Counted from the stretch's first letter, positions 33,001-39,000 are shown. The stretch: 64,000 nt of DNA from Methanobacteriota archaeon (GCA_020697715.1 JAEHCO010000001.1:352001-416000); one strand, 5' to 3'. Numbers: made by a program.

Positions 33001-36000
33001 CAGCACGTGGATACTCATAACCCCCAGGTTGCTTTCTTCCATTATACTGAGAACATTTAGTCCTAGCTTATTCATTTATCGTCACCAAATAATCCATTAT
33101 GCTGGAGTTCATCTAGTATAAGTGAGGATCTATTTGCTTCGAAACAACATCTAACAGATGTTGTCAGCATTATTTTCGCAGTGGCTTTTCCAAAGGCGCT
33201 CACCAGAGAATTATTAAGTTCCTCAATGGATTCAATTGGCTTATCCTTATCAAAGCCATCCTCTCCCATTTTGACTATATTCCTGGCCATCTGAAACCCT
33301 ATGGCCTTTCCCAAGGTACGATAGAGTTCTCGATAAATCATTTCTGCTGATTCGGGATCTAAATTATTCAAGACACGTCCCCACTATTCTTTAAATCCTT
33401 AACTCATAACCTATATAAATGAATTTCGGATGCAGATGAGGCCAGATATCCCATAATTAAATTCAGGATGTCAAAGTTCGAATTCCAAAGGCATAATGCC
33501 CATCAGTCTCGAACAAGGAAAAATACCAATCAAAAAGTATTTCAACCCCATGCTATTTCTCATCAAGGTGGATGATGGTTATCAGCACAGTAGGGGCCCG
33601 TGGTCTAGACAGGTTTGATTTACGCGAAAAATGATTATCGCGTAAATCCCTGAAATGACGTCGCCTTGACATGGCGAAGATCTCCGGTTCAAATCCGGAC
33701 GGGCCCATCTTTGTATTTACATTCTGTATATTATTTTTCAAAGGATGGGTAGCCCATTCCACAGGTAGCCTATTGCATAGCTAACACAGTGGGCGTACCC
33801 TTCAAGCTTCCACAGGAAGGTTGAAATCCCTACAAAATGAAAATAATTATTGGGCGGACTTGGACTGCGAAGCAGAACAAGGCCAAGCCCACCTTGTTCT
33901 GCTTAATTAATTTATTCGATCACCATGTGTAGAAGTGCATCTTGACATCGCCATCTTCTCCAAATGCCAATGAGTTCCAGGTAGTTGCGTGGACCTCATC
34001 ACCAAGTTCTTTCTTGAAATCCTCAAAGCTCGGCGTCATATCAACCACTGTCTTGTTCATGGATATCCTGACATCCCCGTATTCGGCCCAGAAGGCCCAT
34101 TTGTATATCGGTTCCACGATGAGATTTGCCTGCTCCTGTATCGCTTTATTGAAAGATGTGAATTTGTCTGGATCCATGTCTTCATCTCCGATCAAACGTA
34201 ATTCTTCCATTATCAGGAACTGCACACTAAGATTGTTGTATACATGGGAAGTACTCAAATGCCAGATAGGATCAATGCTCGTGTATGAAACCTCGGGGAT
34301 ACTGGCACTCATCCATGCCAGTCTTACATTATCATTGTACTCCGCGCTTTGTTGGTCCCTTATCAGTTCCGCGCTATCTGACATCGTGACACCTATCGTC
34401 AGGAAAAGACCTGAAATAATAATCATGATAACGAAGAACAGCATCGCATCAAGCAGAGACATCATACCATGATCATTCCAGGTTTTTTTCATCAAGTATC
34501 ATCTCCATATTGCCACAATCATGAAGCTAGCTCTGTAATTCCCATCCTCATCCTCAACCACTATAGGGGTGGATTTCGAATATACATCCACTCCAATCGG
34601 CCGATCTTCGGTGCTGATAGGTCCAAAATTTTGTCTTTCACCATGTAGTGTTTCGATATATTCACTTCTATCTAGTATCATTATTTGATATTCAAAATTC
34701 TTGAGTTGTGGGGAAAATTGGTATTCCCAGTCATCGATGTCCATATTGTCAAATGCCTGCCCGTTCAGAACTCCTTCTTGATCCAATGTGATATTGTCCC
34801 AATTAAGTATCTCATCCGAGAAGCCATTTAGATTGTCCATCATCATTGTACTTTCATTGAACCTATTGTATGCTCCATAGACAATGATGGTATTCGTCAC
34901 GAATAAGCCCACGGCAAAGAGAATGAACAATAATTTTGGCAGATCCTCGAAATATCCAGCGACCCCGTTATTATCCAGACATAGGCGGTCTTTTCTAAGT
35001 CCGCTGCTTATTTTATCAGACTCTTTCCAGTTCATCATCCGCCGTGTCATCTGGGCCTACCTGCTTCCCCTATCAAATGCATTACATTCATAGCAGAACC
35101 ATCGCTTTGAATTTCCCAGGAATGACAATGGTTTTTTGCATTTGATGCATTTGTTCTGGAAGCTTCCCTTTCCCAGGTATTTTTTGCAGTTATCGCAATA
35201 CCATCTACTGTGTTTGCCCAAGAATGTGGCATGCTGTCCACATTTTTTGCAGTAAACCTCTGTCGGATCTGCTTTCTCCATTGCTTTGTCCCTTATGGAA
35301 TGTAGGTCGAGAGTTTCTTTGGAACCATGTATCTTGAATTCAACCGCAAGATCTGAGAATGCATCGATCAGGTCATCAGCGTCCTGTATATTCAGGTACT
35401 CCCCTCCTGTCTTATCCGCCACCGTCATAAGGAATTTCTCATCTATCTTATTCCCATAACCCAGAGTGTTGATGATCATGTCTTTTCGAGGAACTATTCT
35501 TTTATTTATTATCTCAAGGCATTTCTCTTCATTCTCTGGTTTACCATCCATCAGCAGCACGATCATCTTATGCTTTTTGTGATCGAGCTTCTTAGCCACT
35601 TCTATAGACTTTATTAAACCATCTTCCAGGTTGGTCAATCCATGCCAGTTTTTAACTATCTTGCCCAATACGGCCTCGCCAAGCTCCGCTGTTGGAACAT
35701 TCGAGCCAGCATTATAGACCCTACTTCCATCTGGAAATGTTACTGGAATGCCCTCGTCACTGAAATATACAAGTCCAAAATTTTTTTTCCCCCCTCCTAT
35801 TTGAGAATAATTCAATATCGCTAGAGCTGCCCCATCGATCCTGGACACCATCCCACCATCTTGAGGCTTCCCCAGGACAGCATCTATCCTGGACACCATA
35901 TCCTTATCTTGAAGTCGCCCCATAAGATCTGTTCCGTACTTATCTGTGAATTTTGACTCGATCGCTTTCACAGTTTCATGTGCCTTGTCATCCATCATCA

Positions 36001-39000
36001 TATCTGCGGTATCCATACTACCTGAAAGGTCGATCATCACGACACTATCATATTCCGCATCCTGTTTTTTGGACCAGGTATAGGAAAAATTCTGAATTCC
36101 ATTGAATTTCGCGGCATCATCTTTAGACAATTCTGGCTTCGTATCAATTATGGTCACTTGCAGATCAAGTTCTTTCAAGATAAAGGAAGTTCCCTTTTGG
36201 AATGCCTTGTTCTTCAATGATCTAACTAGTTCGCTCTCTTTTGTTCTCGTTCTCTGGAGAACATCACCTTTTTTCTTAGATCCGGGTACATTCTCTATTC
36301 CAAGCTCCACGGAATTTATTTGTGTCAGATCTCCTTGCCAGACACTAGTATCTATCTTTATTCCTTCCTGAAGCTCATTGGAGATCAATAGCAAAGGGCT
36401 CACTCCTATGGTACCAGATTCCATATCGCTTTGAATCCCCACGATTCCCAGGATCCTATTACCTGTAGATGTTTGTGTGAGAGATATCAGATCTCCCGCA
36501 TTAGCTCCTAAATTTGATGCATCATCTGGGTTGATCACAATATCTCCTAAATTTGATTCCACAATGCTAAGTTCCACCCATTACACCTCTTGTCGTCCCA
36601 ATAGAGATGATTTTATAAATATCTTAGGGAATTGATCATATTTTCTGTAATTGATTTTTTTTTCCTTTCACTGGCCATAAAATTAACAATAGTTCTTTAT
36701 TGCGCTCATTAGTATACGGGATAGCCAGTACATTATTATAAATATTAACTCTAATGTTAAAAAAATAAGAGCCATTCGGGAGTTCAAATCTCCCAGTCTT
36801 GAATTAATAAAAAATAAGAGCCATTCGGGAGTTCAAATCTCCCAGTCTTGAATTAATAAAAAATAAGAGCCACTGGGGAGATTTGAACTCCCGACCTACT
36901 GATTACGAATCAGTCGCTATATAGCGCTTGAATGCATCATGAATCGGCGCATTCAAATACCGCTAAGCCACAGTGGCATTGTGTATCCTTCAAACCACAC
37001 TGAACTTCATCTTCGATCTCTTGAGAGCCTCGACAACTGGCAATGGCTTCCCAGAAAGCATGTTGATCAATGCTCCTCCGCCCGTGCTCAGGTGGTCGAC
37101 CTTTCTTTCCAGACCCAGCCTCTTAGCGACCGTGCCCGTGTGCCCACCACCAATTATACTGAAGGCATCGCAATCCGCTATTGCCTTGAATATCTCGATA
37201 GTGCCGAAAGAAAATTCCTCGATCTCGAATACACCCAGTGGCCCATTCAGTATCACATTATTGGCCTTGTTTATATGGTCTATGTAATTGACAATGGTGT
37301 CCAGACCTATATCGAATATTGGAAATTCAGAAGGTAATTGATCCACGGTGGCTCCATTCCTATTGCCATTATTATTGAGAGCGATGTCTGTCGGGATCTG
37401 GATCTGATCCGGATACTTCTCGAGAAGTTCTTTTGCCTCGGCTACATATTTCTCATAGTCGGGTATTTCCCTTTCGAGCACATCATCGCTACCAGGGCCA
37501 ACATCTATTCCCTTGGCCATTATGAAAATTGTAGCGACCAGACCTCCAGTGAGTATTTGATTCGCCGAGCCTGATTCCAGCATATTGCCCATGACCTCGA
37601 TGGAATCATCCACCTTGGCTCCTGCAAGTATGGCGAGTGTTCCCGAGCCTTTTTTCATCACTTTGCCCAGAACATCAAGCTCCCTCGCCATGAGCCTGCC
37701 AGCTATGGACGGGATAGCATCCCCAAATCCTACGAGACTCGGCTGTGCCCTGTGAGCTGCGGCAAAGGCATCGCAGACATAATAATCCGCAACAGATGAT
37801 AATCGTGATATCATGTGGGTCTTGGCCAAAACATCGGGTTTGGCCTTTTTCAGAATAAGCTCCTCGGCAAAGAATCGAGTATTCTCTAGTAAAATAATAT
37901 CACCATCTTCCATCTGCTCTATCGCCTGGAGGGCTTTGGAATCAAAAAGAGAATCCACATATTTTATCGGGCGCTTGAGGATCTTGGAAAGACGAGTGGC
38001 ATGGTTCTTCAGGTTGGTGAAGTCCTTCTTGCCAGGCTTGCTCTGGTGGGCCAGGATTATGACTTTGCTTCTAGCAAGGTCATCCAGTGTCTCGATATGA
38101 GCGCGCATCCTGGAATCATCCAGTATCTCACCATAAACTGGGTCCATTGGAGAATTGATATCCAATCTTAGTAAAACTCTTTTACCTCTTAGATTGAAAT
38201 CATCCAAGACAAAGAAGTTCCTTGAAATGGTCATCACCCCCCACATATCACTTGATTATTTAATTATTTTCTATTAACATATTATGAATATTGAAGCATG
38301 TGATCTTATAGTGCGAAATGGACTGGGTCGTATTCTGAATATCAATCTGGGCTCAGGTCCTCGCCACCGAAGAAAAGCATCTGGACATAATTGTAGAGAT
38401 CCTCCATGCCCTCCATTTCCATTGAAGATATTGGAATGAGATCTCGATGTATGGAGAAACTTTCCATCGCCCTCAGGAATTCTATAGCTGCCAGAGGTTT
38501 GGATGATTCCATATTCTCATACAATGAGCTCATCAACATATCAGGCTCCTTGGCCCATTCTACCATCTGATTAAGATCTTCTATATCGACCGTGTCCGAC
38601 TTCCCAATGATATTGAGCAATGGCACATTGAACCTGGAATGGATGGATGACGATAATAGGAATAGTGAAACCAGGCCGGTGGGGTCCTTGGCCACCATGG
38701 GATCCATAATGTACGCGAGAACACTCTGGCCGGTTTGGAATGAGTTGACAAACACTTCACTTGCTTTCCTGAAAGCGAAAAGCTCGATCTGGCCAGGTGT
38801 GTCTATGAGTACGTAATCTGATCTGAAAGTGCCGATGGTCTCGACTATCTCGTGAAAATGCACAGCCGCGAGATCCGCGCATGCGACCTGAGCGCCATTG
38901 GGCCCCAGGCCGTATTCTTCCATCACCTCGGGAACCGATACCCAATCTCGAATGTCCACATCTGGCTGATATCCGAGTTTGTCCACACCTGGATCTAGAT

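Follow-up and report, generated by a model that had tools for sequence, protein, structure and literature searches.

Several tRNA genes of this uncultivated archaeon of the class Thermoplasmata are interrupted in the D-loop. They are very probably working genes with protein-spliced introns of the bulge-helix-bulge (BHB) type at positions 20/21, which would be cut by an alpha'2-type splicing endonuclease (EndA) and ligated by RtcB. The precursor would contain a 4-bp helix (H) made of four D-loop nucleotides and the final four paired nucleotides of the intron. On one side, a clean 3-nt bulge, in which the 5' cut would fall, separates H from the long intron hairpin (h'); on the other, the 3' cut would fall in the three nucleotides that lead from H to the D-stem. 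The D-stem would serve as an outer helix mostly offset by 1-4 unpaired nucleotides. Both sites would be cut by the 358-aa EndA, presumably as a homodimer, and RtcB, which is encoded in the genome, would join the exons. This kind of intron is already known; its occurrence here is unexpected, because the D-loop outer helix is relaxed and the EndA has no specificity loop.

Interrupted tRNA genes

Two of these genes, Val(GAC) and Thr(CGU), are found in the window, that is, the whole 64,000-nt stretch of DNA analysed here (Table 1). Both lie at the coordinates given in an earlier note, and the 20/21 site that it proposed for their introns agrees with the motif, the ARAGORN calls on the spliced forms and the intron-less orthologs. 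The sequences and the motif scan likewise bear out the D-loop introns described for Val(UAC), Leu(CAA) and Lys(UUU), as well as the additional canonical 37/38 intron in two of the five genes. A sixth D-loop intron was found in Arg(GCG), and two T-loop introns were added in Val(CAC) and Ser(CGA). All three Val genes of the genome carry a non-canonical intron, and the interrupted genes are the sole genes found for their anticodons in this assembly. Ordinary introns are in use within the same genome too, as in Ala(UGC).

Table 1. Positions of the tRNA genes, their parts and the splicing endonuclease gene. Positions without a contig name count along the window.
Feature	Position	Strand	Evidence or remarks
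tRNA-Val(GAC) gene, 114 nt	33594..33707	+	sequence, BHB motif scan, fold, ARAGORN on spliced form, orthologs
tRNA-Val(GAC) exon 1	33594-33615	+	
tRNA-Val(GAC) D-loop intron, 39 nt, gene nt 23-61	33616..33654	+	between U20a and A21
tRNA-Val(GAC) exon 2	33655-33707	+	
tRNA-Thr(CGU) gene, 110 nt	36868..36977	-	sequence, BHB motif scan, fold, ARAGORN on spliced form, orthologs
tRNA-Thr(CGU) exon 1	36977-36959	-	
tRNA-Thr(CGU) D-loop intron, 38 nt, gene nt 20-57	36958-36921	-	exactly 20/21
tRNA-Thr(CGU) exon 2	36920-36868	-	
tRNA-Lys(CUU), intron-less paralog	39766..39839	+	ARAGORN, Rfam
tRNA-Ala(UGC), canonical 37/38 intron	60874..60986	-	
tRNA-Arg(CCU), canonical 37/38 intron	61150..61249	+	anticodon loop CUCCUA by eye; ARAGORN mis-call Ala
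tRNA-Val(UAC), D-loop intron and canonical 37/38 intron	C11:45559-45700	-	sequence, motif scan
tRNA-Leu(CAA), D-loop intron	C11:45813-45945	+	sequence, motif scan
tRNA-Lys(UUU), D-loop intron and canonical 37/38 intron	C11:641161-641317	+	sequence, motif scan
EndA, 358 aa	C28:3137-4213	-	PF01974, PF02778

The short D-loop (and some T-loop) introns interrupt essential tRNA genes and thereby hide them from standard finders. ARAGORN reported a single tRNA in the window, Lys-CUU, and Rfam gave four tRNA matches at its gathering score. One of the four is a partial match to Thr(CGU) (31.4 bits, model positions 10-63); Val(GAC) had no Rfam match at gathering score in the window and reached only 23 bits in the whole-genome scan. 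With introns allowed, ARAGORN mis-names the interrupted genes, and its calls of this sort were rejected, for example "Arg-CCT" for Val-GAC, "Gly-TCC" for Arg-UCG and a 201-nt "Pro" within a coding region. At least eight of the 46 tRNA genes, all three Val genes among them, are missed or mis-named by standard finders, and the "tRNA completeness" of MAGs from this class is therefore likely underestimated. Of seven isoacceptors previously listed as missing, five are now accounted for and two, Trp and Glu(UUC), are still unfound. Scans for the T-arm and acceptor, scans for the anticodon arm that allowed for a canonical intron or for none, and the Rfam tRNA model at E values of 10 or less recovered neither Trp(CCA) nor Glu(UUC), and BLAST with Glu(CUC) as query did not find Glu(UUC). 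Gaps in the assembly, or a heavier disruption of the two genes, may account for this.

Motifs and predicted spliced products

The BHB scan, in which G-U pairs were counted, found a 4-bp H and two 3-nt bulges on opposite strands in all six D-loop introns of the genome, with an h' of 4-11 bp. Directly beside H, the outer helix does not exceed 0-2 bp, so that these introns lack the outer helices of at least 2 bp adjoining both bulges that define the strict hBHBh' motif. With a D-stem that is usually offset by 1-4 unpaired nucleotides, the motif corresponds to the relaxed HBh' or bulge-helix-loop form. The T-loop introns, judged from the sequences by eye and from the fold, adjoin the T-stem directly at H and form a strict motif with the T-stem as outer helix.

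In Val(GAC), the scan gave H as CAGG/CCTG, the bulges as TTT and AAA and an inner helix of 11 bp. The 5' splice site lies in the UUU bulge, followed by H (D-loop CAGG with intron CCUG), and the 3' splice site (AAA) falls, in the fold, inside a 4x4 internal loop adjoining the D-stem. The corresponding elements of Thr(CGU) are H AGCG/CGCT, bulges GTA and ATA and a 10-bp inner helix. The minimum-energy folds of both whole genes contain the elements of the scan (z = -6.1 for Val(GAC) and -3.8 for Thr(CGU), with 0/200 shuffles as good in each case). The helix of 4-5 bp with 3-nt bulges previously described for Val(GAC), Val(UAC), Lys and Thr has 4 bp by the scan; H can be extended to 5 bp in the minimum-energy folds of Thr, Val(UAC) and Lys, and the 4-bp register was picked from the orthologs, not from the folds. 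A second register was rejected for Lys(UUU) (H UAGG/CCUA) and for Val(UAC), because the intron-less genes match the first one. The minimum-energy fold of Leu(CAA) is without a bulge-helix-bulge, as had already been reported; its motif exists with two G-U pairs in H, and the product is the D-arm of the paralogs and of the intron-less orthologs. The dependence of this H on two G-U pairs, and its absence from the predicted minimum-energy fold, count against the proposed mechanism. The spliced sequences, left unscored in the earlier note, were obtained by in-script intron removal: ARAGORN accepted all five fully spliced forms (Val-GAC, Thr-CGT, Leu-CAA, Lys-TTT and Arg-GCG) and mis-called Val(UAC) with the D-loop intron alone removed. 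Among sequencing runs searched for this DNA, no RNA run containing it was listed, only one DNA run with a 0.06 share of its sequence words.

An alternative scenario would have the inserts removed by EndA together with another nuclease or a cofactor acting at a weak 3' site, or would have the order of events reshape the substrate, for instance by excision of the canonical intron first. The position of the Val(GAC) 3' site within an internal loop would suit this scenario, as would the HBh' D-loop intron that loop-less enzymes half-cut in vitro according to an excerpt of Kaneta 2018 (PMC5829648). Nevertheless, no candidate factor was seen, the T-loop introns form strict motifs on the T-stem, and homodimeric enzymes are credited with cutting bulge-helix-loop motifs in an excerpt of Tocchini-Valentini 2021 (PMC8707768). 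The involvement of such a factor, or of such an order, thus seems very unlikely, and cutting of both sites by EndA is the favored interpretation.

Junctions, covariation and distribution among relatives

As the earlier note had proposed, the splice site is fixed by intron-less orthologs, and this holds for Thr, Val(UAC), Val(GAC), Leu, Arg and Lys. Val(GAC) and Leu(CAA) each have intron-less counterparts in five genomes and Arg(GCG) in four, the junction of Val(UAC) is fixed by an intron-less D-arm in the relative G001, and the same-genus Thr(CGU) gene of G001 (72 nt) has the sequence of the predicted spliced 5' part. Lys(UUU) is intron-less in 83 of 401 class genomes, where it reads CAGCUAGGUAGAGC, exactly the predicted junction; the D-arm of the intron-less paralog Lys(CUU) (GCUUAGCUAGGUAGAGCG) is also the form expected of spliced Lys(UUU).

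The introns themselves vary in a manner that keeps the motif. The Val(GAC) ortholog of G003, from the same genus, keeps the intron with compensatory changes. In Thr(CGU), the introns of G003 and G002 differ in sequence but occupy this site too and retain H AGCG/CGCT, so that three unrelated intron sequences share one site and one H within a single genus. Four different h' helices occur among the Arg(GCG) orthologs, and in an alignment of Lys(UUU) from 14 genomes all seven h' pairs stay paired via two-sided changes while H and the D-stem are invariant. Of 46 D-loop introns examined in orthologs, 40 have a full four-pair H with a D-arm product (8/9 for Val-GAC, 3/4 for Thr, 6/10 for Val-UAC, 8/8 for Leu and 15/15 for Lys). 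The other six have three of the four pairs, which counts against the proposed mechanism; this count joins two scan runs, with Thr of G003 and Leu of G001, G018, G014, G011 and G007 taken from the first, which ranked motifs by inner-helix length and gave spurious registers for some orthologs. The 20/21 intron pattern of Lys(UUU) is widespread (148 of 401 sampled class genomes, 38 of 105 genera), and the reversed control pattern had no match. Among these 401 genomes, the intron-bearing and intron-less patterns never occur within one family. Within this genome, the Val(GAC) intron and the D-loop intron of Lys(UUU) share 28 of 37 positions (z = 7.1; 0/500 shuffles reach the score), which suggests that one intron was likely copied between the two genes.

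One could also imagine that pseudogene decay or damage by insertions produced the interrupted genes, and that the 6% of the genome missing from the assembly contains the working copies. The assembly is indeed split in 34 contigs and 93.8% complete, neither a Trp nor a Glu(UUC) gene was found in it, and insertion remnants beside tRNA genes are common in the genome. Yet the exons are perfectly conserved and the introns change with compensation, the same interrupted genes are present in many independent assemblies, some of them single-contig, and no family has both Lys(UUU) patterns. Decay or insertional damage is thus extremely unlikely, and the interrupted genes are better understood as the working ones.

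The splicing endonuclease

EndA is the sole match to PF01974 and PF02778 in the whole assembly (93.8% complete), and no separate alpha or beta gene was found there, although a second endonuclease subunit might conceivably be encoded in the missing part. Both domains occur twice in the 358-aa ORF, in the order N-C-N-C, in agreement with the single chain of two full units described before. The KYG, NHA and VKK stretches of its C unit align with the triad positions of fMKA and with M. jannaschii columns that we take to be those of the catalytic triad. The Tyr, His and Lys of the C unit are conserved in 30/30 class sequences, and the N unit lacks Tyr and His at the triad columns. In enzymes of the alpha'2 homodimer type, by definition, a single chain joins an N unit that is not catalytic to a C unit that is; judging by its residues, EndA appears to be a standard alpha'2-type enzyme with a structural N unit and a catalytic C unit. 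The fMKA triad consists of Y294, H303 and K334 (Kaneta 2018, PMC5829648, in excerpt).

Alternatively, EndA could represent a new architecture, a natural beta + alpha fusion resembling the Methanopyrus enzyme and distinct from alpha'2, that permits D-loop introns. Its best PDB match is 5x89 from M. kandleri (E = 1.3e-42, residues 7-348), its N unit can be aligned over its whole length with a complete M. jannaschii subunit (8-176 vs 2-170), Thermoplasma 2ohc matches well at residues 273-357 only, and M. kandleri likewise has a 20b/21 D-loop intron. However, the same excerpt of Kaneta 2018 (PMC5829648), from which this last point is taken, describes 5x89 as an artificial M. kandleri beta-alpha fusion made for crystallography, so that the top match shows only the completeness of the EndA N unit. 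Moreover, residues 33-344 can be aligned with the alpha'2 enzyme of A. fulgidus as well (4e-28), and NCBIfam NF006795, a 350-residue tRNA splicing endonuclease, matches residues 9-357 with 324 bits, below its strict cut-off of 501. The ORF of about 350 aa was matched over nearly its full length in 34 of 40 relatives searched across the class, some of which have intron-less Val, Thr and Lys genes, and the almost gapless alignment of 30 sequences has no insertion or deletion tracking the intron-bearing lineages. The architecture of the enzyme does not, therefore, explain the distribution of the introns, and a natural fusion of this sort is very unlikely. The earlier assignment to a Methanopyrus beta+alpha type, as opposed to alpha'2, is overstated, as the triad is in the C unit only and 5x89 is engineered.

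The alpha'2 enzyme thus favored resembles those of A. fulgidus (2gjw, 1r0v) and T. acidophilum (2ohc) in its one chain, two tandem units and C-unit-only triad. It differs from them in its complete N unit: that of A. fulgidus misses 14 residues in the aligned stretch, and that of T. acidophilum is barely recognisable (E = 0.004). Hirata, Kaneta and Fujishima have reportedly linked non-canonical introns to endonucleases that carry inserted loops. The alignment of EndA has no insertion relative to M. jannaschii, a gap of 10 residues where A. pernix has DVEKPRG...FEGP, and gaps opposite the extra ARMAN-2 residues between the catalytic Tyr and His. None of the insertions of broad-specificity enzymes (CSL/L1, ASL/L2, L3), loops that bring a conserved Lys close to the active site, was found, ASL lying just outside the aligned part and L2 being judged by length alone. 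The alphaN - alpha - betaC organization of the epsilon2 type (about 395 aa) was not found either: the unit order is N-C-N-C, the length is 358 aa, and 4fz2 aligns with EndA in pieces only. The apparent absence of insertions tied to broad specificity and an outer helix of 0-2 bp beside H count against the proposed mechanism. In excerpts of Kaneta 2018 (PMC5829648), deletions are noted in the N unit of the Thermoplasma and Archaeoglobus enzymes, and the A. fulgidus alpha'2 and loop-less M. kandleri enzymes cut an HBh' D-loop intron poorly in vitro.

Comparison with known systems

The closest parallel, as far as the excerpt of Kaneta 2018 (PMC5829648) goes, is the pre-tRNA-Glu(UUC) of M. kandleri, which has a 20b/21 HBh' D-loop intron and a canonical intron and is served by a loop-less (alpha-beta)2 EndA. 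The D-loop site and the relaxed motif class are the same, D-loop and 37/38 introns occur together as in Val-UAC and Lys-UUU, and the enzyme, to which EndA is closer than to any other solved structure, is without CSL and ASL loops. Nevertheless, M. kandleri has two separate subunit genes instead of one two-unit chain and, in that excerpt, one such tRNA instead of at least six D-loop and two T-loop introns, whereas here the trait extends across many genera of another class. In the A. pernix-type system the introns also lie at 20/21 and 59/60, a gene can have several of them, the motifs are relaxed, and there are signs that introns have moved from one tRNA gene to another; it differs in its enzyme, as here an alpha'2 enzyme with a 10-residue gap at the A. 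pernix specific loop is found in a euryarchaeal lineage. According to Yoshihisa 2014, the introns of euryarchaeal lineages of this sort are confined to the canonical position. ARMAN-2 also combines a single-chain enzyme (epsilon2; 4fz2; Fujishima 2011, Hirata 2012) with many disrupted tRNA genes, and its beta-C unit can be aligned with the PGKN stretch in the N unit of EndA. Yet EndA has two full units (N-C-N-C) in place of alphaN-alpha-betaC, and gaps at the ARMAN-2 extra residues between Tyr and His.

Implications

A literature search found no non-canonical tRNA introns in Thermoplasmata, although the supplementary tables of tRNAscan-SE 2.0 and Kaneta 2018 and GtRNAdb, outside that search, may list them; no literature pairing "Methanomassiliicoccus" with "tRNA intron" was found. 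A broader scenario, to which we give an even chance, is that much of Thermoplasmata relies on relaxed D-loop 20/21 and T-loop 59/60 introns with a loop-less alpha'2 as only endonuclease, the Lys(UUU) intron being ancient and the Val(GAC) intron derived from it. If so, enzymes could accept a broad range of substrates in vivo with no need for specificity loops, a whole class would break the rule by which Cluster II Euryarchaeota with alpha'2 have canonical introns only, and the older claim that homodimers cut bulge-helix-loop motifs, as cited in an excerpt of PMC8707768, would be vindicated. A loop-less alpha'2 that must serve at least six relaxed D-loop motifs in essential tRNAs is a natural test of substrate range. 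The presence, absence and replacement of introns at one site in one genus, together with one intron kept over 38 genera and a likely copy between genes, also provide a dense natural series for the origin and movement of tRNA introns.

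Introns in the D-loop of tRNA genes

Two tRNA genes with an enlarged D-loop lie in the window, which is part of contig C11 in the assembly of the genome under study (2.12 Mb, 34 contigs, 93.8% complete). The earlier note had described both as missed by ARAGORN and by the Rfam tRNA model. The sole tRNA call of ARAGORN within the window is Lys(CUU). At the Rfam gathering score tRNA-Val(GAC) has no match in the window, and it scores 23 bits in the whole-genome scan; tRNA-Thr(CGU) has a partial match (31.4 bits).

The extra nucleotides were searched for the bulge-helix-bulge motif, defined as a 4-bp central helix (H) with a 3-nt bulge on the 3' side of each strand. 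This convention was checked on the canonical 37/38 introns of Lys(UUU), Arg(UCG), Leu(UAA) and Met, where the outer helices have 5-7 bp. One sensible motif was obtained per D-loop, including a sixth case, tRNA-Arg(GCG), that was absent from the earlier list. In these D-loop motifs the inner intron helix (h') has 4-11 bp, against only 0-2 bp for the outer helix abutting H. When the whole genes are folded at minimum energy, the acceptor, anticodon and T arms stay in place and the 5' cut falls within a clean bulge of 3 nt. The 3' cut is found between H and the D-stem, in an internal loop of 4x4 in Val(GAC) and 2x3 in Lys(UUU), and in a bulge in Thr(CGU), where H can be extended to 5 bp. Given the short outer helix and the position of the 3' cut in a loop or bulge beside the D-stem, the D-loop motifs correspond to the relaxed HBh' (bulge-helix-loop) form and not to the strict one. 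The motif is not seen in the minimum-energy fold of Leu(CAA), as had been reported before.

Introns were removed in silico by a script that placed the cut after nucleotide 2 of each bulge. ARAGORN accepted the spliced forms as Val-GAC (75 nt), Thr-CGT (72), Leu-CAA (84), Lys-TTT (74) and Arg-GCG (74); Val(UAC) was mis-called when only its D-loop intron was taken out and the second one was left in. The predicted mature junction in the Lys(UUU) pattern is ...CAGCUAGGU|AGAGC....

Coordinates and motifs of the intron-bearing tRNA genes, the splicing endonuclease and the tRNA genes followed by a repeat (H, central helix)
Feature	Location	Strand	Description
tRNA-Val(GAC)	window 33594-33707	+	acceptor GGGCCCG/CGGGCCC; anticodon arm UCGCC-UUGACAU-GGCGA; normal T-arm; 39 extra nt in D-loop; H CAGG/CCUG; bulges UUU, AAA (motif scan)
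tRNA-Thr(CGU)	window 36868-36977	-	38 extra nt in D-loop; H AGCG/CGCU; bulges GUA, AUA (motif scan)
tRNA-Val(UAC)	C11		H GGGG/CUCC; bulges UUU, AUC (motif scan)
tRNA-Leu(CAA)	C11		H GGUC/GGCU; bulges AAA, AAC (motif scan)
tRNA-Lys(UUU)	C11		H CUAG/CUAG; bulges GUU, AAA (motif scan)
tRNA-Arg(GCG)	C28:148152-148268	-	43-nt intron between 17 and 17a; H GUAG/CUAC; bulges CUA, AAA
tRNA-Val(CAC)	C34:12290-12399	+	T-loop intron (about 59/60); H UUCA/UGGA (hand reading)
tRNA-Ser(CGA)	C32:37739-37902	-	T-loop intron (about 59/60) and canonical intron; H UUCG/CGAA (hand reading)
EndA	C28:3137-4213	-	splicing endonuclease, 358 aa
tRNA-Arg(CCU) and repeat	window 61150-61385
tRNA and repeat	C11:45813-46120
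tRNA and repeat	C11:558519-558740
tRNA and repeat	C11:155543-155720
tRNA and repeat	C22:264098-264309
tRNA and repeat	C22:278741-278924
tRNA and repeat	C22:303642-303831
tRNA and repeat	C28:52236-52420

Evolution of the D-loop introns

Comparison with orthologs makes the strongest part of the case for these introns. Within the genus, Thr(CGU) is intron-less in G001 (72 nt), where the 5' part equals the predicted product, and has unrelated intron sequences at an identical site with an identical H in G002 and G003. G003 keeps the Val(GAC) intron, and three changes in its h' are compensated; the gene is intron-less in five genomes, and one genus of a different family has another intron at the same place. 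Val(UAC) has no D-loop intron in G001, where it reads GGUCUAGGGGUUCUGACG, which fixes the register of the motif, and an intron occupies this site in nine further genomes of the order. The introns of Leu(CAA) and Arg(GCG) are present in all four genomes of the genus, the latter with differing h' helices. An intron of 119-125 nt is found at the Leu(CAA) site in four genomes of another family, and intron-less genes with the predicted D-arm occur in five genomes for Leu(CAA) and in four elsewhere in the order for Arg(GCG).

For Lys(UUU), H (CUAG/CUAG) and the bulges GU(U/A) and AAA recur in 15/15 readable genes of the order, and in an RNAalifold analysis of 14 genes all seven h' pairs stay paired despite two-sided changes. 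Among 401 sampled genomes of the class Thermoplasmata, 148 (38 of 105 genera) have the intron-bearing pattern, a reversed control pattern having no match, and 83 the intron-less one, CAGCUAGGUAGAGC...CUUUUA; neither strict pattern matched in the other 170. No family has both. The intron-less form, also seen in the Lys(CUU) paralog of the window, shows that the junction falls between U20 and A21. In one family of the order (f4, loci L094-L104, covered without their 3' ends), Lys(UUU) apparently has three introns: in the D-loop, at 37/38 and in the T-loop after UUCGAA.

The introns of Val(GAC) (window 33616-33654) and Lys(UUU) (C11:641182-641218) of the genome under study are identical at 28/37 positions (z = 7.1, 0/500 shuffles), and their H' segments differ, each fitting its own exon. 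Together these features suggest that the D-loop intron was copied between the two genes at the same site.

tRNA gene content and T-loop introns

The genome has 46 tRNA genes, with anticodons read by eye wherever ARAGORN was wrong. Sixteen bear introns, 19 in all as itemised (11 canonical, 6 in the D-loop, 2 in the T-loop), and all three Val genes need the removal of a non-canonical one. ARAGORN wrongly named Arg(UCG) (C30:29137-29255, minus strand) as Gly(TCC) and Arg(CCU) (window 61150-61249) as Ala; its 201-nt 'Pro' (C11:520141-520341) and 489-nt 'His' were rejected as tRNA genes. Val(CAC), Ser(CGA) and three Arg genes, listed before as not found, are now located. Trp(CCA) and Glu(UUC), from the same list, gave no gene in any scan of this 93.8% complete assembly; their genes may fall into gaps of the assembly or be disrupted more heavily. 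A class II tRNA with a long variable arm, G73, a Ser-like acceptor stem and anticodon GAA (Phe) is encoded on a 26-kb contig (C1:17057-17144, plus strand); an ordinary Phe(GAA) gene is also present (C11:472667-472739).

In the T-loop introns of Val(CAC) and Ser(CGA), as read by hand, the T-stem abuts H as outer helix, so that the motifs come near the strict form. Among the orthologs of Val(CAC) are one with another intron in place of this one, one with a 118-nt version, and two intron-less genes with the loop UUCAAAU. The initial 22 nt of tRNA-Ser(CGA), which end near D-loop position 20, occur a second time 92 nt upstream of the gene (C32:37973-37994, minus strand).

Repeats around tRNA genes

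At least eight intact tRNA genes have their last 13-17 nt, from T-loop to discriminator, directly repeated 90-175 nt downstream, and several of the intervening segments have motifs in common. They look like remnants of small elements inserted in the 3' part of tRNA genes, and may bear on the origin of the T-loop introns (compare Sugahara 2012, PMC3293823). Directly after tRNA-Thr(CGU), a 49-nt tandem repeat (window 36760-36880; 2.5 copies, 97% matches) has in each unit a T-arm-like hairpin with inverted loop and an acceptor-like GAAUGGCU. Between Val(GAC) and Thr(CGU) (window 33708-36867; G+C of 0.42 versus about 0.46) are three minus-strand ORFs of 191, 183 and 506 aa, for which Pfam gave no match and PHROG one weak match of unknown function. 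This region may be an integrated element.

The splicing endonuclease

EndA, with the domain order N-domain, catalytic domain, N-domain, catalytic domain, is the only match in the assembly to either Pfam family (PF02778, PF01974), in agreement with the single gene with two units in one chain of the earlier note. That note also proposed a special beta-alpha fusion distinct from the alpha'2 type (one chain of two units, forming a homodimer), on which several observations bear. Tyr, His and Lys of the C unit align with the triad of the Methanocaldococcus jannaschii and Methanopyrus kandleri enzymes (Y294, H303 and K334 in the M. kandleri fusion; Kaneta 2018, PMC5829648); the N unit, which can be aligned to the M. 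jannaschii subunit from one end to the other, has neither Tyr nor His in the triad columns. The best PDB match, 5x89, is described as an author-built beta-alpha fusion with a three-glycine linker (Kaneta 2018), and ranks first because the N unit of EndA is complete, not because the architecture is new. The Archaeoglobus fulgidus enzyme aligns to EndA residues 33-344 but lacks 14 N-unit residues; such deletions are reported in Thermoplasmatales, Halobacteriales and Archaeoglobales (Kaneta 2018). The 350-residue NCBIfam model NF006795 matches residues 9-357 with 324 bits, under its strict cut-off. In 34 of 40 class relatives the ORF is matched over nearly its full length (two others, G029 and G033, in two pieces; four incomplete genomes without a match), and 30 aligned sequences show hardly any gaps and all keep the triad. 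With the triad in the C unit only, an engineered 5x89 and a class-wide ORF, the idea of a special fused enzyme finds no support, and EndA is of the alpha'2 design, presumably acting as a homodimer. Unlike the Aeropyrum pernix enzyme with its specific loop, it has a 10-residue gap at that place, and gaps also stand opposite the additional residues that separate Tyr and His in ARMAN-2 EndA. RtcB is present.

Intron positions and enzyme type

Intron sites 20/21 and 59/60 are known from Crenarchaeota and Nanoarchaeota; for Euryarchaeota whose enzyme is of the alpha4 or alpha2 type, a single intron in the canonical position is described (Yoshihisa 2014, PMC4090602). According to Kaneta 2018, with which Hirata 2019 agrees on these points, removal of non-canonical introns is confined to (alpha-beta)2 and epsilon2 enzymes that have inserted loops, the alpha'2 enzyme of A. 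fulgidus and the loop-less one of M. kandleri act poorly on the M. kandleri tRNA-Glu 20b/21 HBh' intron, and tRNA gene disruption tracks EndA inserts and not subunit type. On the contrary, homodimeric and heterotetrameric enzymes are reported to be able to cut the bulge-helix-loop motif (Tocchini-Valentini 2021, PMC8707768). A literature search, with supplements and GtRNAdb outside its scope, found no paper on non-canonical tRNA introns in Thermoplasmata.

The D-loop introns first proposed in the earlier note are borne out by the motif scan, the spliced forms accepted by ARAGORN and the intron-less orthologs. The introns are real and under selection, and we infer that they are spliced. They are of a known kind; what is unexpected is the lineage, their number and their pairing with a loop-less alpha'2 enzyme.
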